Shown: piece after piece, positions 28,999 to 40,444 of the stretch
Layout: each line of letters begins with the position of its first letter
Numbering within the stretch: the first letter of the stretch is position 1
Virus record (IMG/VR): IMGVR_UViG_2579778961_000003
Length of the DNA stretch: 40,444 nt
Source: a virus
Taxonomy: Duplodnaviria; Heunggongvirae; Uroviricota; Caudoviricetes
Direction: 5' to 3' (one strand)
Made by a program: the position numbers and the translations under genes
Notes under the pieces: generated by a model
Told to the model about the DNA's origin: nothing
Databases searched by the model: none
The model's input: the letters and a program-made list of their open reading frames with translations, nothing else

Positions 28999-29727
28999 AT
29001 GACGCAGACACTGAATCCGGTCATCACTGTCACCGTGTCCGGTCCTGTGGGCAGCGGTAAAAGTTACGTACTGGCGCGAATAGAGGAAGTGGTGAAACAG
29101 GAATTCGGAAACAGCGTCATTGTCGACGCCGCAGACGTGGACGGTGAGCGCCGTATGAGTGGGGATGATCTGAGCACATGGCAGAAACCACGGGCTGGCA
29201 CAGTGATCAGGCTGGAGGAATACACGGGACAGGGCCTGTTGTCATACGGCGAGGAGCGTATCTGTCGGACGAATGAGCTGCTGGATGTTATATGCCCCAC
29301 GGGCCGGCAACCCTGGATACTGCCCGATGCACTGCATGCCACCATTGCGGCACTGATGACAGTTTACGATCAGGAGCTGCTCATGAAGGAGTTACGTAAA
29401 CTCACTGGTCAGTCAACAGAATGTTGTTCGTCCCCGAAGTACGGCAAACAGGAACACATCCCGATTAACCAGCCTCCCCGGTTCTTCGACGAATACCTTC
29501 TGACACCGGAAAATAAAGCTGAGCATGAAGAGATCAAAGCGGCGTTGTTCCGGGAAATCAGGAAGATTGCTGAAATGCAACTGGAGGGCGGGCTGGACAG
29601 AGTGATGGCGAGAGGAGAATGGGCATCGCTGTTTGAAAGAGTTTCCCCGGAATTACTTCCCCTCGCACTGGCTATCGGGATTATGCAGACAGCGGATAAA
29701 CCTCACTTACGTTCATTAAACACGTAA
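28999..29727 (+). CDS. P-loop NTPase/kinase-like protein of unknown function
   Basis: Walker A motif VSGPVGSGKS at residues 13-22; GAGGAG RBS; lies in the accessory island between the late operon and the repressor. Confidence 0.6.
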   Translation: MTQTLNPVITVTVSGPVGSGKSYVLARIEEVVKQEFGNSVIVDAADVDGERRMSGDDLSTWQKPRAGTVIRLEEYTGQGLLSYGEERICRTNELLDVICPTGRQPWILPDALHATIAALMTVYDQELLMKELRKLTGQSTECCSSPKYGKQEHIPINQPPRFFDEYLLTPENKAEHEEIKAALFREIRKIAEMQLEGGLDRVMARGEWASLFERVSPELLPLALAIGIMQTADKPHLRSLNT

Positions 29728-30107
29728 CGCATAATCCGGGATACGCATTCAGCGATGACTGCATTTTCACCGGTTTTTACTGCATCCAGAAGTGACTCTT
29801 TAAATGGTACGGGCCGGGGCTGCAGAAAGGTCGGCATGGCATTGAGCAGACAGAGCGTTTTTTCCGTGAGGACGACATCAGCCGCTCCCACAGCCAGCAA
29901 CTGAGAGTAACGAATATAGCTGTTATCCCGAAGCCATATCAGCGTATCAATAAAACACCGGCACTTTTTCTGGTCGTGATCAACCTGGTCCGGGATATCG
30001 AAAAAACCAGAATAAATCAAAACCTGAGGTGCCGGATGCGTGTTCAGTAATCGGCAGAATATTTTGCCGGTGAGTACATAAAAATCATCATTTAAGGAGT
30101 GCATCAT
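29703..30107 (-). CDS. Hypothetical protein
   Basis: 134 aa ORF convergent with and overlapping the 3' end of the P-loop gene by 25 bp; weak RBS; lower-GC region. Confidence 0.4.
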   Translation of the reverse strand: MMHSLNDDFYVLTGKIFCRLLNTHPAPQVLIYSGFFDIPDQVDHDQKKCRCFIDTLIWLRDNSYIRYSQLLAVGAADVVLTEKTLCLLNAMPTFLQPRPVPFKESLLDAVKTGENAVIAECVSRIMRYVFNERK

Positions 30108-30321
30108 GAATCCCCGATTAACGTTAACAGAACATCAGCGCCGTGCTGAAGCAGTGAACAATGTTCTGGAAGATATTATCCGGTTATACCGCGGAGAACT
30201 GAGTGTCTGTCGTGCCGCTTTTCATTTTCAGGGAATACAAAAGCAGTTTGATACTTCTGTTTTTGCAGAAGGTATTACTTATGCCCTGGACCGGATAAGG
30301 TCAGAAAATCGCCCCGGATAA
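30106..30321 (+). CDS. Hypothetical small protein
   Basis: 71 aa ORF with strong AAGGAG RBS 6 nt upstream of the ATG. Confidence 0.5.
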   Translation: MNPRLTLTEHQRRAEAVNNVLEDIIRLYRGELSVCRAAFHFQGIQKQFDTSVFAEGITYALDRIRSENRPG

Positions 30322-30377
30322 TCCCTAAACCACATTAACAGAAATCCCGCCATCCCTGCCGCATCATGAAAGAACGA

Positions 30378-30405
30378 CCAGCCCGGCACCCGAAAGCCGG
30401 GCTGG
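30378..30405. other. Perfect 10-bp stem hairpin (possible terminator or RNA structure)
   Basis: ccagcccggc-acccgaaa-gccgggctgg; no strong T-tract on the plus strand, modest T-rich run on the minus strand. Confidence 0.4.
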
Positions 30406-30511
30406 TCATCGCCCCACAGGAATGCGCTGTGAGCCGACCAAGGTTCAGTCAGTCTCGCGAGACCTGACCAGACTGCCATATTTTTTAATAATTGTAAAAG
30501 GCTTGCAGATT

Positions 30512-31276
30512 ATGAAAATGCAGACATTACCCATCGTGCCGTGGATTGGTGGCAAACGCCGCCTTGCAAAACACATTCTGCCGCTGTTTCCGGCGCATGA
30601 ATGTTATGTGGAGCCGTTTTGTGGGGCAGCAGCGCTCTATTTTCTTAAGACACCCGGCAAGATCGAAGTCATCAATGATATCAACGGTGAACTGGTGAAT
30701 CTGTACCGGGTGGTAAAGCATCACCTGGAAGAATTTGTCCGCCAGTTCAAATGGGCGCTGGTCAGCCGTCAGATCTACAAATGGCTGCAGATCACCCCGG
30801 AAGAAACACTGACGGATATCCAGCGTGCGGCACGGTTCTACTACCTTCAGAAGCAGGCGTTTGGCGGCAAGGTGGCAGAGCACAGCTTCGGTACCTCCAC
30901 CACATCCCCGCCACGCTTCAACCTGCTACGTATTGAAGAAGAACTGTCAGCGGCACACCTGCGGCTTTCCAGAACAGTCATAGAACACATGGACTGGCAA
31001 CAGTGCATTGAGCGTTATGATCGTCCGCACACGCTGTTCTACTGCGACCCACCGTACCTGGGTACGGAAGGCTATGGTGTGGATTTTCCTGAAGGGAACT
31101 ACTCGCGGCTGGCAGAGCTGGCCCGGTGCATCAGAGGAAAAATGATAATTTCGGTGAACGACATCCCGCAGATGCGCGAGGTGTTCACTGGACTGAACAT
31201 ACAGACAGTGAATATCAACTACAGTCTGGCGGGTAAACCCACGCCGCGCCGTGAACTGCTAATCTGCAACTTCTGA
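30512..31276 (+). CDS. DNA N6-adenine methyltransferase (Dam-like, orphan)
   Basis: Motif I EPFCGAAALYF and motif IV DPPY (LFYCDPPYLGT); no adjacent endonuclease candidate; start chosen at ATG 30512 rather than ORF-track 30422. Confidence 0.9.
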   Translation: MKMQTLPIVPWIGGKRRLAKHILPLFPAHECYVEPFCGAAALYFLKTPGKIEVINDINGELVNLYRVVKHHLEEFVRQFKWALVSRQIYKWLQITPEETLTDIQRAARFYYLQKQAFGGKVAEHSFGTSTTSPPRFNLLRIEEELSAAHLRLSRTVIEHMDWQQCIERYDRPHTLFYCDPPYLGTEGYGVDFPEGNYSRLAELARCIRGKMIISVNDIPQMREVFTGLNIQTVNINYSLAGKPTPRRELLICNF

Positions 31277-31283
31277 AACAAAA

Positions 31284-31306
31284 CCGGAAAGCACAATGCT
31301 TTCCGG
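31284..31306 (-). terminator. Probable terminator of the repressor transcript
   Basis: Hairpin ccggaaagc-acaat-gctttccgg; on the minus strand it is followed by TTTTGTTTC. Confidence 0.5.
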
Positions 31307-31392
31307 TAAACCAAACAACTTCCACTATGTCACTGGCGATGTTTTCTGAAAGCATCCAGATCAACCACCTGTCCTTTGTGTCCGGGTCAGTA

Positions 31393-31749
31393 TCAGCCTG
31401 CGATTTTTCCTGGTTTTGGCTGAGTATAGAATCGCCCAATCTCAAGAAATGAGCGTTGTTGGTCTGGTGTCATGTCGTCAAAAGTATCTATTAGTTTTTG
31501 TTTTTCTGGGGAAATTTGATTCTGGTTTCTAGTCATACCATCTGTGCTCATTCCAGTGAGCAACCAATTTACATCAACATTAAACTCTTGATGCATCTTT
31601 AACAGAAACTCCCCTCCAGGCATCGCCTTTCCATTTTCAATCTGACTGATACCACCATTAGAAATACCTAAACGAGCTGCAAATTCTCTCTGGTTCAACC
31701 CTGCTTTCTTCCTCACAGAAATAACGCGCTCTCCTATATCTTTGCTCAT
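31393..31749 (-). CDS. Prophage repressor (HTH XRE family; Mu c-equivalent)
   Basis: N-terminal HTH (LNQREFAARLGISNGGISQIENGK), divergently transcribed from the early operon, operator palindrome in the intergenic region. Confidence 0.75.
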   Translation of the reverse strand: MSKDIGERVISVRKKAGLNQREFAARLGISNGGISQIENGKAMPGGEFLLKMHQEFNVDVNWLLTGMSTDGMTRNQNQISPEKQKLIDTFDDMTPDQQRSFLEIGRFYTQPKPGKIAG

Positions 31750-31789
31750 AAAAGTGAATCTCTATCTTGATATGCTCATAATTATGAGC
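31743..31789. promoter_or_regulatory. Operator/early promoter region with 18-bp perfect palindrome
   Basis: TGCTCATAATTATGAGCA at 31772-31789 and a TGCTCATA half-site at 31743-31750 overlapping the repressor start codon. Confidence 0.6.
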
Positions 31790-31842
31790 AATAATCTAAC
31801 ACATATAAGGCAAACATCATTGCATCAACAAAGGAGACAACG

Positions 31843-32031
31843 ATGACTGCAGAACAAGTCAAAGCTCTCTTCCGCCAGCGCGGGATCACTTTCACCCGCT
31901 GGGCAGAAGAAAACGGCTACAACCGCAATGAGGTATACCGCGTTCTCAACGGGCAGACCAAAGCCCGTTACGGTAAATCCCATGAAATCGCCGTGAAGTT
32001 GGGACTGAAATCAACAGCTCAGGCGGCCTAA
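31843..32031 (+). CDS. Small DNA-binding early regulator (Ner/Cro-equivalent)
   Basis: 62 aa basic protein, first rightward gene after the operator, AAAGGAG RBS; assignment by position rather than clear Ner motif match. Confidence 0.5.
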   Translation: MTAEQVKALFRQRGITFTRWAEENGYNRNEVYRVLNGQTKARYGKSHEIAVKLGLKSTAQAA

Positions 32032-32077
32032 ATATTTTGAGTCTTTGTAAAAGGTTATCACATATCGCAAAAGAGGT

Positions 32078-32392
32078 ATGCAGATGAGTAAGACGAATGT
32101 TTCAAGCTCCGGCAGTCGCATCCTCCGGGTACTCAAAGCGCTGCGCGGTCATGCCCTGAACGGTATTTCTAACGGTGAACTGGCGACAGCACTGCACGAG
32201 TCACCGGCAAACATCAACCGGGCACTCAACACCCTCATTGAAGAAGGGCTGGCTCTGAAACTGGAGAACGGACGTTTTGCACCGGGCATCCAGTTACTGC
32301 AGATCGCCATGGCCCACAGTAACGAGATGGCACGTGCACAGGATCGTATTAACGAAATTAACCAACGTGTCATTTCAGGTAGTCGTTTGTAA
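32078..32392 (+). CDS. Winged-helix DNA-binding protein (putative transcriptional regulator)
   Basis: 104 aa; HTH-like segment ISNGELATALHESPANINRALNTLIEEGL; AAGAGG RBS. Confidence 0.45.
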   Translation: MQMSKTNVSSSGSRILRVLKALRGHALNGISNGELATALHESPANINRALNTLIEEGLALKLENGRFAPGIQLLQIAMAHSNEMARAQDRINEINQRVISGSRL

Positions 32393-32402
32393 GGAGTAAT
32401 CA

Positions 32403-33323
32403 ATGGGACGTACCAAATCACCGATTAACACTGAACTGAACGCCGATGTACCGCTGTCGGATGATCTCAACGTCAGCCTGAATGCCATGACACAGCATCG
32501 CATGGAGATCATGCAGCAGTTTGGTGATGGACTGCCTTATGAACGTGAACGCATCGTTCACGAAGCACGTTTTTATATGGCGCAGAGTGCTGAATCTATG
32601 TTGGAAGCGGGTAAGCGGCTGATCATCTTAAAAGAAAATGAACCGCATGGTGATTTCACAAATATTCTGGAAAACGACCTCGGATTAGCACCACAGGTAG
32701 CTCGTCGCATGATGCAGGCCAGCGTGAAATTTCTCGGCAATGGAGATGAACAGCCAAAACGCTCAGCGCTGAGCGTTTTGGGAAAAACCAAGTTATATGA
32801 ACTGATGGTTCTGGATGACGAAGAACTCGACGCATTAGCTGATGGTGGAACCGTCGCCGGTGCAACGCTTGATGATATTGATCGCATGACCAGCCGCGAA
32901 CTGAAGGCCGCCCTGCGTGAAGCGCGCGAAACCAACGCAGCTCAGCAACAGGTGCTTGCCGGAAAGGACGAAAAAATCAACGAACTGGCCACAAAACTGG
33001 AGAAGAAATCGCGCCTGCAACCTCCGCCGCCAGACGAAGAACTGAAAAAATTGCGGGCGGAAGTGACGGCATTAGCGGTTGAGGCCGAATCGGCTATCGC
33101 CGTCCGGCTGTCCAGTGTTTTTGAGACCCTGTGTGAATACTGCACCAAAAACATGATCGATACCCCCAGAGATTTCATGGCCGGTCTGGTCTGCCAGATT
33201 GAACGCAGTGTTCATGCATTACGTGAGACGTTTGACCTTGAGGCCGCTCCATCGGGTAACGATGCCCCCGCCTGGCTGACCGAACCGGAACCTGAAATCA
33301 ACCGACCGGAGGATATGCAGTAA
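32403..33323 (+). CDS. Hypothetical early protein
   Basis: 306 aa ORF with acidic/coiled-coil regions between regulator genes and transposase. Confidence 0.5.
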   Translation: MGRTKSPINTELNADVPLSDDLNVSLNAMTQHRMEIMQQFGDGLPYERERIVHEARFYMAQSAESMLEAGKRLIILKENEPHGDFTNILENDLGLAPQVARRMMQASVKFLGNGDEQPKRSALSVLGKTKLYELMVLDDEELDALADGGTVAGATLDDIDRMTSRELKAALREARETNAAQQQVLAGKDEKINELATKLEKKSRLQPPPPDEELKKLRAEVTALAVEAESAIAVRLSSVFETLCEYCTKNMIDTPRDFMAGLVCQIERSVHALRETFDLEAAPSGNDAPAWLTEPEPEINRPEDMQ

Positions 33324-33640
33324 TGAATACGAATAACACACAAAATACCCTGATGGACAGCCCGGAGGCACTGGGGCACGCACTGTGTAATCTGCTGCCG
33401 GAGATGGTGCAGGGTTTCCGCGTGGTGACCCCTTCCGGTGAAATCTGCGTACCCGCACAGGAGACGCACCCGTTTGTACTGACGATGGAGGTGATGCTGA
33501 TGCAGCAGATAAGACGTCTGCAGAATCAGTCAGCATTACGCCCGGTAGTTGCACCGCAACCGGTAAATACCGTGGTGAAAACCTGCGATGGCGAAACACT
33601 GTGCGACCTCGCCAGAAAAATTGCCGCCAGAATCGGATAA
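33323..33640 (+). CDS. Hypothetical early protein
   Basis: 105 aa ORF, start overlaps upstream stop. Confidence 0.4.
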   Translation: MNTNNTQNTLMDSPEALGHALCNLLPEMVQGFRVVTPSGEICVPAQETHPFVLTMEVMLMQQIRRLQNQSALRPVVAPQPVNTVVKTCDGETLCDLARKIAARIG

Positions 33641-33655
33641 CAGGGAAGACAAGCT

Positions 33656-35425
33656 ATGACCCCGGCACTGACTGAAAAACTGGTTGAAACAGCCCGCGCG
33701 GCACGTGACGCGGGGCATGGTAAACGCGGTGCAATATACGACGCTGCCTGTGCTGAACTTGGCATGTCCCGCGCCACTCTGCTGCGCAGGCTGAAGGAGG
33801 TATCTGTGACTGATAAACGCAAAAAACGCGCCGATGCCGGGCGCAGCGCCCTGACCCGCGACGAAGCCGCGCTGATATCTGCCACACTGCGTGAGGCCAC
33901 CCGCAAGAACGGTAAGCGTCTCTATTCCATCGCAGATGCAGTGGAAACCCTGCGGGCTAACGGCTTTATCACCGCAGGCAGAACAGATGAAACCACCAGT
34001 GAGTTTTTCCCGTTGTCTGAAGATGCCATCAGCCGTGCTCTGCGTAACTATGGCCTGCACCCGGAACAACTGGATGCCCCTGCACCACATACCGAAGTGG
34101 CCAGTCTGCATCCCAATCATGTCTGGCAGATTGACGCCTCACTCTGCACGCTTTACTACCTGAGCAATGGACATAAAGGGCTGCAGGTGATGGACAGCGC
34201 GAAGTTCTACAAGAACAAGCCCGCTAACCTTGCCCGTATCGCCAGTGACCGCGTGTGGAGTTACGAGATTACCGACCATGCCAGCGGCTGGATTTACGTT
34301 GAGTATGTGACGGGCGCGGAATCAGGTGAGAACCTGTGTTCTGTGCTTATCAACGCCATGCAGGAGCGTGGCGGCGCAGACGTGCTGCACGGCGTGCCGA
34401 AAATACTCTATCTCGACCCCGGCTCGGCAAACACCGCGGGTATGACGAAAAACATGTGCCGCTCACTGGGCATCGACCTGATAGCGCACAAGCCGCATAA
34501 CGCCCGCGCCACCGGACAGGTGGAAAAGGCGCGTGACATTATCGAACGCAAGCTGGAGCCGGGTCTGAAGTTCCGGCCGGTTCACAGTCTGGAAGAACTC
34601 AACGCGCTGGCCGCGAAATGGCGCAGCCACTTTAACGCCACGGCTGTTCACAGCCGCCACGGTAAAACCCGCACGGATATCTGGCTGAAGATTACTGCTG
34701 AGCAGCTGAAAAAAGCGCCTTCCGTTGAGGTATGTCGTGAACTGGCTGTGGCGGCACCAGAACTCCGCAAAGTCACGCCAAAACTTCGTGTCTCGTTCCG
34801 GGGCACTGAATTTGACGTATCAACGGTACCGGGCGTACTGGTTGGTGAAAAACTGATGATTACCCGTAACCCATGGCGCAGCGATGTGGCACAGGTGGTT
34901 CTGACCGGTGAGGACGGCCACGAGACGTTCTTCCTGGTCGAAGAGGTCAGAAAGAACGAGTTTGGCTTTGCTGAAGGCGCGGCGGTATTTGGCGAAAGTT
35001 ACAAAGCCCTGCCGGAAACCCCGGCACAGATGGCGGCAAAAGAAACCGAAGCGCTGGTTACCGGTACAGACAACGCCGCAGATGCAGCCGCCGCACGCAA
35101 GGCGAAGGCGCTGCCGTTCGGCGGGCGGCTTGACCCGTATAAACATATCGACGACACCACACTTCCGGCCTATATGCCGAAGCGTGGTCAGGCCTCTGAC
35201 GTACGCGGGCCGCGCACTGAACAACGTCCCATGACTCATGTGGAGGCCGCGAAAGCCCTGCGCGATAAGTTCAGCGCCGACGGCCTTACCTGGACGCCGG
35301 AACATTACCGCCAGTTAACGGCACAGTACCCGGACGGCGTACCGGAAGCCGCACTGGATGAAGTCATGGCCACGCTGACCACACCGGCCCGCAGCAGTGT
35401 TATCAGCATTGTTAACGGCAACTGA
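33656..35425 (+). CDS. DDE transposase (Mu A-like)
   Basis: 589 aa; N-terminal DNA-binding region; integrase-core-like HPNHVWQIDAS segment; followed by an AAA+ B-like gene. Confidence 0.8.
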   Translation: MTPALTEKLVETARAARDAGHGKRGAIYDAACAELGMSRATLLRRLKEVSVTDKRKKRADAGRSALTRDEAALISATLREATRKNGKRLYSIADAVETLRANGFITAGRTDETTSEFFPLSEDAISRALRNYGLHPEQLDAPAPHTEVASLHPNHVWQIDASLCTLYYLSNGHKGLQVMDSAKFYKNKPANLARIASDRVWSYEITDHASGWIYVEYVTGAESGENLCSVLINAMQERGGADVLHGVPKILYLDPGSANTAGMTKNMCRSLGIDLIAHKPHNARATGQVEKARDIIERKLEPGLKFRPVHSLEELNALAAKWRSHFNATAVHSRHGKTRTDIWLKITAEQLKKAPSVEVCRELAVAAPELRKVTPKLRVSFRGTEFDVSTVPGVLVGEKLMITRNPWRSDVAQVVLTGEDGHETFFLVEEVRKNEFGFAEGAAVFGESYKALPETPAQMAAKETEALVTGTDNAADAAAARKAKALPFGGRLDPYKHIDDTTLPAYMPKRGQASDVRGPRTEQRPMTHVEAAKALRDKFSADGLTWTPEHYRQLTAQYPDGVPEAALDEVMATLTTPARSSVISIVNGN

Positions 35426-35435
35426 GGAGGGAAAC

Positions 35436-36602
35436 ATGCTGGTACTGAAGCAGCAACTGAAAGAGGCCCGTATTCCACAGGCGGTGGTGGCGAGAGCTGT
35501 CGATGTTTCTGAGGCCACGCTGGCCCAGATTGTGAATCATAACGCGTGGCCCCGCACCAGCCCCGGAGAAGTGCGCCGGCGTCTTGCGTCCTGGCTGGAA
35601 AGTCAGGGGATTGATACAACGAAGAGTTTTGATGCTGTACAGGGCGCGGCCACGCCCCGTACAGCGGGTACCACAGATAAAACGAGCCTCAGTGAGGAAG
35701 AGAATATGTTACTCAAAAAACAGGTGTTATTTCCAGCAACCAAAAAAGCGTTTGGTCTTTTCCGTGACCCGTTCGCCGACGAAGCCATGCAGGGTTCTGA
35801 TGATGTGTTCACCACCCCGGACATTCGCTACGTGCGTGAGGCGCTGTACCAGACAGCCCGTCATGGTGGGTTTATGGCCGTCATCGGTGAGTCCGGTGCG
35901 GGTAAATCCACGCTGCGCCGCGACCTGACTGAACGTATCAACCGCGAGAATGCGCCGGTAATTGTTATCGAGCCATACATCATCGCTATGGAAGACAACG
36001 ATGTGAAAGGGAAAACCCTGAAGGCAGCAGCTATTGCCGAAGCCATTATCAGTACCATCGCACCACTGGAAAGCATCAGACGCAGTCAGGACGCCCGTTT
36101 TCGCCAGTTGCATCGCGTCCTGAAAGACAGCAGCCAGGCGGGGTTCAGCCACGTTCTGGTGATTGAGGAGGCCCACAGTCTGCCCATTCCGACACTGAAA
36201 CACCTCAAACGCTTTTTTGAGCTGGAGTCCGGTTTCAAAAAACTGCTGTCCATCGTGCTGATTGGCCAGCCGGAACTGGCGACAAAACTGTCTGAACGCA
36301 ATATGGAAGTCCGTGAAGTCGTTCAGCGCTGTGAGGTGGTCGAACTTCTGCCTCTGGACAATAACCTTGAAGAATTTCTGACGTTCAAACTGCAACGGGC
36401 CGGTAAACAGCTGACGGACATTATGGACGCCGGTGCAGTGGATGCCATACGTGCCCGCCTGAGCAATCCGGGAAGTCACCGTAAAAATATGGTCAGCCTG
36501 CTGTATCCGCTGGCCGTCAGTAACCTGGTAATAGCCGCCATGAATCTGGCCGCTGAAATCGGGGTTCCACAGGTCAACGCTGACGTTGTCAAAGGGGTTT
36601 AA
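35436..36602 (+). CDS. Transposition ATPase (Mu B-like, AAA+)
   Basis: Walker A GESGAGKST, N-terminal HTH-like region; start placed at ATG 35436 with GGAGGG RBS. Confidence 0.75.
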   Translation: MLVLKQQLKEARIPQAVVARAVDVSEATLAQIVNHNAWPRTSPGEVRRRLASWLESQGIDTTKSFDAVQGAATPRTAGTTDKTSLSEEENMLLKKQVLFPATKKAFGLFRDPFADEAMQGSDDVFTTPDIRYVREALYQTARHGGFMAVIGESGAGKSTLRRDLTERINRENAPVIVIEPYIIAMEDNDVKGKTLKAAAIAEAIISTIAPLESIRRSQDARFRQLHRVLKDSSQAGFSHVLVIEEAHSLPIPTLKHLKRFFELESGFKKLLSIVLIGQPELATKLSERNMEVREVVQRCEVVELLPLDNNLEEFLTFKLQRAGKQLTDIMDAGAVDAIRARLSNPGSHRKNMVSLLYPLAVSNLVIAAMNLAAEIGVPQVNADVVKGV

Positions 36603-36604
36603 TA

Positions 36605-36874
36605 ATGAAATCCACCACAGGTATCAACCAGCAAATCAGCAAAGTGCAGTCAGCCATTATGGCGCTTAAGGCGACGAACACGGATGTACAAAGCATCACC
36701 ATCAGGGGTAACAAACCTGTCATCCGCGTTTCCCGGAGTGCGCATTGCATGCGCATGCTTGAGCAGGGAAAGGCCTGTTATCTGTATACCGGACATGACC
36801 ACAGGGGATATTTCCGTCAGGGCGTTTTCGAACTGCACGGCTGTCGCGTCGTGTGGCCGGAATCTTTGTGGTAA
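36605..36874 (+). CDS. Hypothetical early protein
   Basis: 89 aa ORF immediately after B-like gene. Confidence 0.4.
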   Translation: MKSTTGINQQISKVQSAIMALKATNTDVQSITIRGNKPVIRVSRSAHCMRMLEQGKACYLYTGHDHRGYFRQGVFELHGCRVVWPESLW

Positions 36875-36901: not shown

Positions 36902-37432
36902 ATGGCAAAAAGTACAAAAGGTGCAAAACGTATCAAGGCCGCAGCAGCACTCTGGGTGCCGGGGACACGTGAAGAGGTCATTGAGGGAATCAGACTACTC
37001 GGTGACGCACAACGTGAACTGGTCAGGGCTGAAACAGAAATGAATGACGCCATTGGCGATATCACCGCACGTTATGCCCCGCTCACCGAGAGCCTGAAAA
37101 AACGCATGGCCGAACTGCAGTCCGGTATTCAGACATGGTGTGAGGCACACCGTGATGAACTGACCGGCAACGGGAAGGTGAAGTTCGCTAACCTCACCAC
37201 CGGCGAGGTGCAGTGGCGAAACCGTCCGCCATCAGTCAGTATCCGTGGGGCGGATAATGTTATTGAATTACTGAGACGTCTGGGGCTTGAGCGCTTTATT
37301 CGTGTAAAAGAGGAAATAAATAAAGACGCTATCCTGAATGAAAAAGAGGCCGTGAAAAATATTCCCGGTATTTCCATTAAAAGCGACATTGAGGATTTTT
37401 CAATAATTCCTTTTGAGCAGGATGTGCAGTAA
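36902..37432 (+). CDS. gam: Host-nuclease inhibitor Gam-like protein
   Basis: 176 aa, size and coiled-coil character of Mu Gam; located in semi-essential early region after B. Confidence 0.65.
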   Translation: MAKSTKGAKRIKAAAALWVPGTREEVIEGIRLLGDAQRELVRAETEMNDAIGDITARYAPLTESLKKRMAELQSGIQTWCEAHRDELTGNGKVKFANLTTGEVQWRNRPPSVSIRGADNVIELLRRLGLERFIRVKEEINKDAILNEKEAVKNIPGISIKSDIEDFSIIPFEQDVQ

Positions 37433-39633: not shown

Positions 39634-40083
39634 ATGCAGAAAAAACGCCTGATACAGCTTATCCATATTGCCCGTAATGAACTGGGTATGGATGAAGACA
39701 CCTACCGCCAGATGTTACAGGGGCTGACCGGTAAAGCCTCAACCAAAGGAATGGATACCACACAACTAAACTGCGTGCTGGAATCCATGAAAAAGAAAGG
39801 CTTTCGCGTTAAACCAGCCAGAAAAGCCAGCTCCGGTTTACCGCTTGATAACCATCCGCAGTCCAGGAAAATTCGTGCGCTATGGCTTGAAATGGCTGCT
39901 GCCGGCATTGTTCGTGACCGTTCAGAAAATGCATTAGCGAGGTGGATCAAGCGGGAAACGGGCATCAGCGCCCTGCGCTGGCTCAGTACTGAACAGGCAA
40001 GCAGTGTTATTGAGAAACTGAAGAAGTGGCAGCGCAGAGCTGCGGGAGTCAAACATGAGCGACCTGAATCAGTTTCGAAGTAA
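39634..40083 (+). CDS. GemA-like regulatory protein (Mu gp16-like)
   Basis: 149 aa; N-terminal LIQLIHIARNELGMDEDTYRQML pattern; located immediately upstream of the Mor-like gene as in Mu. Confidence 0.55.
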   Translation: MQKKRLIQLIHIARNELGMDEDTYRQMLQGLTGKASTKGMDTTQLNCVLESMKKKGFRVKPARKASSGLPLDNHPQSRKIRALWLEMAAAGIVRDRSENALARWIKRETGISALRWLSTEQASSVIEKLKKWQRRAAGVKHERPESVSK

Positions 40084-40444
40084 GGGGCCGGAACTCCTGG
40101 TGGAACTGGCACAGCATACCTCTGAGACCGTTCGCGAGATTATTGATATTGAGCCCGAAGTTGCCGACCAGATTGGTCAGGCCGTCGCGAACCGAATGAT
40201 GCAGGTCTGGGGCGGGCAAAACGTTTATTTCCCGATGGGCATGGTATGGAAGGTCAGTCAGCGCGACCGGGAAATCTTCAGGGAGTTTAACGGACGCAAC
40301 CACCACGAACTGGCCCGCAAATTTGGTGTTTCGCTTCAGTGGGTCTACAGCGTGGTTAAGCGGGTAAGAAAAGAAGAACTGGATCGGATGCAGGGCAAGC
40401 TATTTGCTGATGAACCCGATGCAGATACGGAGAAAAAAGAGTAA
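40055..40444 (+). CDS. mor: Mor/C-family transcriptional activator (Mor-like)
   Basis: 129 aa with GGQNVYFPMG ... FNGRNHHELARKFGVSLQWVYSVV, matching the Mor/C family pattern as recalled; complete ORF ends at window end. Confidence 0.7.
   Translation: MSDLNQFRSKGPELLVELAQHTSETVREIIDIEPEVADQIGQAVANRMMQVWGGQNVYFPMGMVWKVSQRDREIFREFNGRNHHELARKFGVSLQWVYSVVKRVRKEELDRMQGKLFADEPDADTEKKE

Follow-up and report, generated by a model that had tools for sequence, protein, structure and literature searches.

What occupies the space between the early regulator and the transposase of a transposable prophage, cargo or a part of the transposition machinery? The question is raised by the IMG/VR virus record IMGVR_UViG_2579778961_000003 (Caudoviricetes), a stretch of 40,444 nucleotides referred to here as the window, in which three plus-strand open reading frames (ORFs) of 104, 306 and 105 amino acids (aa) sit between the gene of a 62-aa helix-turn-helix (HTH) protein and that of an rve-type transposase, TnpA (Table 1). 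The original prediction had taken bacteriophage Mu as its reference, where ner is indeed followed directly by A, and regarded all three as genes inserted behind a Ner-like regulator. The ORF listing bears out the three reading frames, the same genes are annotated in RefSeq and in the record of Escherichia phage PhiKM, and all three are real genes. The element, however, is a transposable prophage of the BcepMu/B3 type and not of the Mu type. The region 31300-36700 is 100% identical to that of PhiKM, a Bcepmuvirus, and TnpA gives no significant BLASTP alignment with MuA (best E=0.48), so that Mu is the wrong reference. Two of the three genes, encoding a small winged HTH (wHTH) protein and a DUF3102 protein, almost certainly form a core module, and the 105-aa gene a lineage-specific addition to it. 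Moreover, a feature absent from the original prediction lies inside the DUF3102 gene, namely a self-encoded palindrome whose bases vary together with the putative reader helix of the protein encoded around it.

The palindrome, 28 bp long and without a mismatch, is the longest perfect palindrome of the window and covers codons 118-127 of the DUF3102 gene. It belongs to a family with the core CAAAW-N7-C/G-N7-WTTTG (the slash marking the centre), members of which are found at the homologous codons of relatives, BcepMu, phiE255 and B3 included, with a sequence that has changed with compensation. A perfect palindrome of 13+13 bases is present in 26 of 67 distinct DUF3102 genes and one with 12 of the 13 pairs in another 15. 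When the same proteins are encoded with randomized synonymous codons, the mean is 8.8 pairs and 13 are never reached, 41 of the 67 genes beating all 200 randomizations; the palindrome is thus not imposed by the protein sequence. It occurs as a single copy in the window, where no further palindrome or half-site copies beyond chance were found, and inspection of the phage ends by eye revealed no half-site-like motifs. Some phages have two to four copies, which share their inner sequence and stand in one or the other orientation, and in Neisseriaceae loci the start codons of DUF3102 and tnpB are preceded by sites at a distance of 3-9 codons. Extra copies of the family can also be seen in the early or immunity regions of the loci L009 (Mae-JY22; 871-942), L049 (2392-2419), L052 (3844-3869), L059 (1171-1196, 2626 and 3405), L007 (Ps60; 450-481) and L089 (2634-2667), some of these extra copies lying within opposite-strand genes and that of Ps60 inside an annotated repressor gene.

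An inverted repeat in an early transcript may act as RNA, in attenuation, processing or stability, in which case any link with a protein helix would be a by-product of linkage. The predicted fold of -19 kcal/mol (z=-4.1) is in keeping with such a hairpin, as are the A-run and T-run around a GC-rich stem, which recall a weak bidirectional terminator; the T-run, however, counts 3-4 bases and a terminator scan makes no call. Across 40 distinct sites, a set picked for being palindromic, 8 of the 13 pairs vary in both arms. Among them are the two central pairs, which a hairpin would leave unpaired in its loop and which nevertheless stay complementary and co-vary. No change is seen in the outer CAAA/TTTG or the central CG, which is not the behavior of a pure stem. 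The mismatches of imperfect copies are of every type rather than chiefly G:U, copies stand in both orientations and within opposite-strand genes, and the pairing of amino acids with bases described below persists for sites outside the gene. Since the central pairs co-vary and the mismatches are of all types, a symmetric site in duplex DNA fits better, and the RNA explanation appears very improbable.

The protein that would read such a site is suggested by a mutual-information scan over 43 dereplicated loci and about 1400 columns from five proteins, from which palindrome-encoded residues were excluded. All of the top-ranking couplings with the half-site involve DUF3102 residues 96-102, the bases concerned being 5-10. 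Arginine at residue 101 goes with CG at bases 6-7 (12/12) and glutamine with GC (19/19), which accounts for 1.57 of 1.62 bits; arginine at residue 98 goes with G at base 8 (33/33); and threonine at residue 99 goes with C at base 9 (17/19), isoleucine, valine or alanine occurring there mostly with A. Neighboring columns and the other proteins reach 0.5-0.9 bits. When loci are sorted by half-site, the residues at the start of DUF3102 helix 97-112 vary with the site, and the AlphaFold model puts the co-varying residues at the start of this helix, after helix 84-93. The window represents a specificity type with the helix APQVARR and the site ACGCTCAG, unlike BcepMu, phiE255 and B3, examples of non-cognate types being CAAAAGCGCAAGC and CAAATGTGCCAGC. 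The same helix/site pairs are found in a separate IMG/VR set, with about 10 types in all, and a test on the protein alone, in which residue 120 stands in for bases 6-8 that encode it, gives a Fisher p=2.4e-8 for 119 representatives.

With regard to sites outside the coding region, L061 has ACGCTC beside APQSAR, matching the window, R98 goes with G8 and Q101 with GC in L065, and L062 and L077 have serine or asparagine at position 98 together with C8; the pairing holds in Neisseriaceae loci with an intergenic site, and in BcepMu too. Because it persists where the site is outside the gene, a purely within-protein or a purely linkage explanation is disfavored. The comparison makes it quite probable that the DUF3102 N-domain is a type-specific HTH reading a cognate palindrome in its own gene, and most likely this HTH (recognition helix at about 96-107) would bind the 26-28-bp palindrome at 32754-32781 as a dimer.

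Helix and site are also exchanged as a unit. In the loci L112 and L113 the wHTH protein is 99% and TnpA 98.8% identical to those of the window, the 105-aa gene is present in both, and the flanks of the cassette are 93-100% identical, whereas the segment 32560-32900 is at 57-65% identity and has a different helix and palindrome. Comparison of BcepMu with phiE255 reveals an explicit junction, TnpA, TnpB and the DUF3102 C-region being 95-100% identical and the N-halves of DUF3102 27-53%. Where a genome has two such prophages, their types differ in three of four cases, and the fourth pair includes a decayed copy. The palindrome, about 60 bp downstream of the helix codons, thus forms with them an exchangeable specificity cassette, of which relatives have at least about 10 types. 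At broad scale, in a comparison of 62 dereplicated loci, variation in the DUF3102 C-region follows that in TnpA (rho 0.81; with the N-domain controlled for, partial rho 0.78, p=0.0005) but not that in its own N-domain (partial rho -0.05), and a contact between the DUF3102 C-domain and TnpA can be hypothesized. As a separate observation, distances over DUF3102 residues 1-130 correlate with those over the N-terminal HTH region of TnpB, residues 1-125 (partial rho 0.40-0.51 given TnpA, whose gene lies between the two, p=0.0005), the pair BcepMu and phiE255 being a counter-example.

Regarding the DUF3102 protein itself, PF11300 matches residues 65-173 with 27.0 bits (cutoff 24.4), in agreement with the RefSeq name, and phrog_1748 matches residues 1-303 (1e-143), which together with the conserved gene order places it in the BcepMu gp10/B3 ORF13 group. 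The ratio of nonsynonymous to synonymous substitution rates (dN/dS) is 0.10, and 1585 clusters (50% identity) match the protein at E<=1e-3. Its AlphaFold model is all-helical, with a mean predicted local distance difference test (pLDDT) score of 69. It has an N-domain at about 20-125 (pLDDT ~80-87 over 61-110), in which the helices 84-93 and 97-112 would form the HTH, a disordered stretch at 131-157, a long helical hairpin (164-202 and 210-249) and a helix at 256-276, with pLDDT 84-93 over 221-280. No fold match better than E=0.14 was obtained for the model in PDB and BFVD, a profile search of the alignment against PDB returned only a designed helical protein (E=0.15), and PADLOC and NCBIfam gave nothing informative. 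A proteomic study of an extended-spectrum beta-lactamase E. coli strain detected Gam of such a prophage together with its DUF3102 protein and the HTH protein encoded next to it, the three changing in parallel (PMC9927464). Some homologs are longer (P0311, P0321, P0325, P0367, P0368 and P0377; 434-545 aa), with an N-terminal extension of 150-290 residues; they were set aside as informative fusions, the extensions having no Pfam domain, and that of P0321 is cysteine-rich with a repeated pattern.

An N-terminal HTH followed by a long coiled coil resembles KfrA, and a palindrome inside the gene of its own binder recalls parS in spo0J; the wHTH protein, for its part, has weak profile matches to the KorB HTH (E ~0.02). 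One may accordingly ask whether wHTH, DUF3102 and palindrome form an organizer or segregator of the ParB/KorB or KfrA kind, for instance one that marks a chromosomal domain or protects against self-insertion. This is very unlikely, considering that Pfam and NCBIfam searches of the three proteins and their neighbors found neither a ParB N-terminal/CTPase domain nor a ParA partner, that the prophage of the window has a single site, and that integrated transposable prophages need no partition.

The gene pair that contains this cassette is nearly universal in the family. The order wHTH, DUF3102, TnpA, TnpB is found, with full-length orthologs of both proteins, in eight sequenced phages, namely BcepMu, phiE255 and B3 (gp12/gp10, gp42/gp41 and ORF14/ORF13, respectively), and Ps60, phiSHP3, Bise, Mae-JY22 and KP12, the pair standing directly upstream of the transposase and ATPase genes. 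The block comprises gp12, the small gp11, gp10, gp9 and gp8 in BcepMu, gp42-39 in phiE255 and ORF14-11 in B3; identity of the BcepMu, phiE255 and B3 proteins with those of the window is 33-55% for wHTH and 37-55% for DUF3102. In a species-level set of 80 loci, representing as many species of gamma- and betaproteobacteria, TnpA comes after the DUF3102 homolog in 78, the remaining two being cut contigs, TnpB follows in 74, and wHTH precedes DUF3102 in 75. Even in KS10, which has a more distant transposase, a gp10-like gene lies directly upstream of it (PMC2628397). In the species loci the gp16-like and wHTH genes are separated by as little as about 50 bp or as much as about 1.5 kb, and many relatives have variable genes between the gene in the ner position and that of wHTH; since this stretch varies, the pair travels with the transposase and not with the immunity genes. 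The original prediction had asked whether these might be ubiquitous core early genes of known function; wHTH and DUF3102 are ubiquitous core genes, and the second half does not hold, the annotations of BcepMu, phiE255 and B3 recording no function for the pair and a literature search having found no description of function for these genes or the palindrome.

The wHTH protein was regarded in the original prediction as a winged-helix regulator, added with the other two as cargo, that could modulate the lysis-lysogeny switch or transposition. That it is a winged-helix protein holds good: HTH_IclR (PF09339), the IclR N-terminal HTH, matches with 26 bits (7.9e-6; cutoff 22), and PDB matches are to MarR/IclR proteins, over the DNA-binding part only. 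Pfam found no IclR C-terminal effector domain in its 102-104 aa, it is thus no IclR regulator in the full sense, and PADLOC returned only weak HTH-level matches, which do not make it a defense protein. It falls into phrog_1368 (5e-45) and aligns with the proteins of BcepMu, phiE255, B3 and KP12, in the group of BcepMu gp12/B3 ORF14. Its start is most likely the second ATG, at 32084 (102 aa), since the Shine-Dalgarno sequence AAGAGG at 32070-32075 is too near the ATG at 32078, and the proteins of RefSeq, PhiKM and relatives open with MSK. An inverted repeat within the gene (32278-32338) is unconserved in relatives and was judged to be due to chance.

In favor of the cargo view, wHTH is a credible DNA-binding protein of the early operon adjoining the immunity region, and the 105-aa gene is a genuine insertion. 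However, wHTH is under strong constraint (dN/dS 0.03) and keeps about 90% identity throughout enterobacterial relatives with repressors at 20-64% identity to that of the window, so that it is unlinked to immunity type; the wHTH and DUF3102 genes are tied to the transposase, with variable genes in many relatives located between ner position and wHTH instead; and the comparison with Mu on which the view is built is irrelevant. Cargo status for all three genes, with wHTH as an added regulator of lysis and lysogeny, is improbable, and its proposed part in the switch is unsupported. A role in transposition is plausible. The wHTH protein was also considered as the reader of the variable part of the palindrome, and rejected, identical wHTH recognition helices being found beside different palindromes; judging from the sequences compared, specificity-type behavior belongs to the DUF3102 protein.

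As an insertion, the claim stands for the 105-aa gene alone. Its start overlaps the DUF3102 stop codon (TAATG), and it is a lineage-specific accessory insertion, found in none of the 80 species loci, in 9 of 80 IMG/VR loci and in one phage record, and in 410 E. coli genomes as against 638 for the neighboring pair. Among 5.8 billion proteins it forms 11 clusters, from E. coli or Salmonella wherever the source names an organism, and a divergent 87-aa homolog occurs at the same junction. Its dN/dS is 0.24-0.44. No match was found in Pfam, NCBIfam or PADLOC, and its model, of low confidence (mean pLDDT 63), has no PDB fold match. The junction between DUF3102 and tnpA also has gaps elsewhere, namely in L169 (218 bp), L170 (326 bp), L175 (1072 bp), L043 and L044 (~200 bp), Photorhabdus (~130 bp) and L165, and small genes may have inserted there repeatedly.

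What, then, might a DUF3102 protein bound to its own gene do? The segment is the front half of a BcepMu/B3-type transposition gene block, in which the coiled-coil hairpin and C-terminal region of DUF3102 probably dimerize the protein and link it to the products of neighboring genes, with wHTH (~102 aa) as a conserved partner. The most likely job of protein and palindrome would be to mark the DNA of the phage itself for the transposition machinery, the palindrome being an internal enhancer-like site, with a possible brake on transcription into tnpA and tnpB as a side effect. Taken as a whole, this account has slightly better than an even chance of being right. Its functional core, an enhancer-like service of protein and palindrome to the transposase, is put forward tentatively from the sequence comparisons; self-recognition for replicative transposition, with DUF3102 and its palindrome recruiting or activating a Tn552-type transposase/ATPase, is a possibility held at the lower edge of that same tentative range.

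The nearest competitor is pure autoregulation, in which the bound palindrome would block RNA polymerase and cap the expression of tnpA and tnpB without any role in the transpososome. The helix-site co-variation, as support for DNA binding by the N-domain, serves this explanation equally, and it gains from the site being part of the early operon and preceding tnpA by 0.9 kb, from the lack of any other promoter-like site in the vicinity, and from the Neisseriaceae sites just upstream of the DUF3102 and tnpB starts. A feedback loop, however, gives no obvious reason for many orthogonal types or for cassette swaps among 99%-identical prophages, and it leaves unexplained the extra copies far upstream or within other genes as well as the long coiled coil and the conserved C-region. 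Autoregulation alone is therefore rather unlikely. The enhancer-like or recruitment role is favored because of the layout shared with lambda O/ori, the likeness to the I-alpha module of MuA with the Mu enhancer, and the many orthogonal types, which suggest self-recognition acting in cis.

Several points weigh against the account as a whole. The whole case for DNA binding is comparative, and no structural homolog of DUF3102 in PDB or BFVD supports any mechanism. As the helix codons are only about 60 bp from the site, shared ancestry may inflate their association; the cases with an intergenic site and the far lower scores of neighboring columns speak against this without removing it. About one third of the DUF3102 genes have no strong in-gene palindrome, the site being elsewhere or having a 2-bp spacer in some of them, and the percentage of paired bases in the 40 sites provides no independent evidence, since these were selected as palindromic. 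The co-variation of C-region and TnpA, tried as proof of contact, was rejected as such and kept as a weak hint: linkage can explain it, and it is broken in L103, where TnpA is 98.6% and the C-region 78% identical. Finally, the window has just one site, with about 8 kb between it and the phage end closest to it, and a palindrome has no orientation, unlike the enhancer of Mu.

Table 1. Features of the locus in window coordinates, with the palindromes of four relatives (a slash marks the centre of a palindrome)
Feature	Position	Strand	Basis or remark
XRE/cI-type repressor, immunity gene, divergent from early operon	31393-31749	-	Pfam HTH_3 4.6e-15, Phage_CI_repr; phrog_8/4
Early promoter-like site TTGATA-17-AATAAT	31767-31795	+	
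18-bp operator-like palindrome TGCTCATAATTATGAGCA	31773-31790		overlaps early promoter-like site
62-aa HTH protein, BcepMu gp16 family, Ner/Cro position	31843-32031	+	TIGR04111 97.4 bits; phrog_925 3.8e-33
Small winged-helix protein, ortholog of BcepMu gp12/B3 ORF14	32078-32392	+	104-aa ORF
306-aa DUF3102 protein, ortholog of BcepMu gp10/B3 ORF13	32403-33323	+	
Exchangeable specificity cassette (HTH domain and palindrome)	32560-32900 (approximate)	+	comparison with L112 and L113
Codons 96-102 (APQVARR), N-terminal end of predicted recognition helix	32688-32708	+	mutual information, contingency tables
Perfect 28-bp palindrome CCAAAACGCTCAGC/GCTGAGCGTTTTGG	32754-32781	.	proposed DUF3102 N-domain site
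105-aa ORFan at DUF3102/transposase junction	33323-33640	+	
rve-type DDE transposase TnpA, BcepMu gp9 type, not MuA type	33656-35425	+	PF00665, phrog_310 3.7e-147
AAA_22/ExeA-type transposition ATPase TnpB, MuB analogue	35436-36602	+	PF13401 3.8e-20, phrog_296 5.5e-93; RefSeq start
gam	36902-37432		
KP12 palindrome CCAAAAGCGCAAGC/GCTTGCGCTTTTGG			
B3 palindrome CAAAACGGACAAC/GTTGTCCGTTTTG			
Photorhabdus palindrome CAAAAGCGAAAAC/GTTTTCGCTTTTG			
BcepMu palindrome TTCAAAAGCGGCGTT/AACGCCGCTTTTGAA			

As for the surroundings of the pair (Table 1), prophages matching the region 31300-36700 are carried by about 12% of complete E. coli genomes (644 among 5426), ST131 strains included, and polylysogens add 68 extra copies to this set. 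The 62-aa protein, called Ner-like in the original prediction, falls below the gathering cutoff of the Pfam Ner family HTH_35 (17.9 vs 25 bits) and belongs instead to TIGR04111 (BcepMu_gp16), whose cutoff is 34 bits. The early promoter-like site is the only one in 31200-33800. Half-sites related to the operator-like palindrome that overlaps it are found at the repressor start (31741-31751) and within the repressor gene (31545-31562), and palindrome and half-sites are probably operators of the repressor or the gp16-like protein. Between this promoter-like site and the transposase gene there is no terminator-like site with a T-run; on this ground the three ORFs probably belong to the early operon and are co-transcribed with tnpA and tnpB. 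The phrog_310 match of TnpA begins at profile position 130.

The second-longest palindrome of the window, an 11-bp stem (ACCGGAAAGCA...TGCTTTCCGGT) with a minus-strand T-run at 31283-31307, lies between the dam and repressor genes and is likely a terminator. From the lysis genes to the repressor extends an accessory block (28999-31276) of a 242-aa ORF, an opposite-strand 134-aa ORF, a 71-aa ORF and a DNA adenine methylase gene, which in KP12 is replaced by other genes. The window starts in a host gene (1-1284) and ends (40055-40444) at the stop of a Mor-like gene; no more than about 150 bp beyond this gene, strain 4/1-1 has the prophage end and ycaL. The Mor-like gene being near the prophage end, the early operon reads toward the phage end, opposite to Mu. 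In the urinary isolate E. coli Ec-U4 (L177, NZ_CM192147.1; 4337-8479), an ISEcp1-blaCTX-M-15 unit splits tnpB of the same prophage.

These results correct a Mu-centered view of such genomes, in that the pair is core and the 105-aa gene alone is cargo. They also point to a possible route to an enhancer-like or self-recognition function in BcepMu/B3-type phages, whose transposases bear no relation to MuA and are missing its enhancer-binding domain. If the proposal is true, the palindrome and its reader would be a trans-acting counterpart of the Mu enhancer and MuA I-alpha, organized like lambda O/ori, and the many orthogonal types of helix and site would prevent interference between related prophages that reside together. 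It would also give a first function, with a readable pairing of amino acids and bases, to a DUF of about 1,600 clusters (50% identity).

Among known systems, BcepMu, phiE255 and B3 are like the window in the order of orthologs and in having a palindrome at the same codons; the window differs from them by the extra 105-aa gene between DUF3102 and tnpA, and BcepMu differs from the window by the small gp11 within the pair. In D3112, a Mu-like phage, three unrelated ORFs occupy the position between ner and A. Small HTH or winged-helix proteins open the early operon of the window as do Mu Ner and lambda Cro, and the HTH of wHTH is of the IclR type; unlike Ner, the 62-aa protein is below the family threshold, and unlike IclR, wHTH has no effector domain. 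ParB-parS (spo0J), KorB-OB and IncP KfrA combine palindromes of similar size, sometimes in the gene of the binder, with an HTH and a dimerization or coiled-coil domain; the context here is, by contrast, a transposition operon, with no ParB/CTPase domain and no ParA found.

The closer parallels are those with Mu and lambda. The Mu enhancer (IAS) is read by MuA I-alpha, a part of the transposase itself; the site overlaps the operators, and the modules of Mu and D108 differ. By analogy, the window has an internal site in the early region and a type-specific HTH module putatively serving a transposase, with the differences that a separate protein acts as the putative reader, that its transposase shows no relationship to MuA, and that the site, a symmetric palindrome, is removed from the operators by 1 kb. 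In lambda, the origin is located within the O gene, the N-domain of O reads the site, the C-domain works with the product of the next gene, and lambdoid phages swap type-specific cassettes of N-domain and site. The DUF3102 protein has no sequence or family relation to O, Phage_rep_O (the lambda O family) giving no Pfam match, so that the resemblance is one of layout only; there is one palindrome here as opposed to four iterons and an AT-rich region, and the putative partner is a transposase rather than a helicase loader. The layout itself is the same in both, with a site inside the gene of its known or proposed binder, next to the linker between N-domain and C-part, and exchange of the two as a type-specific cassette.

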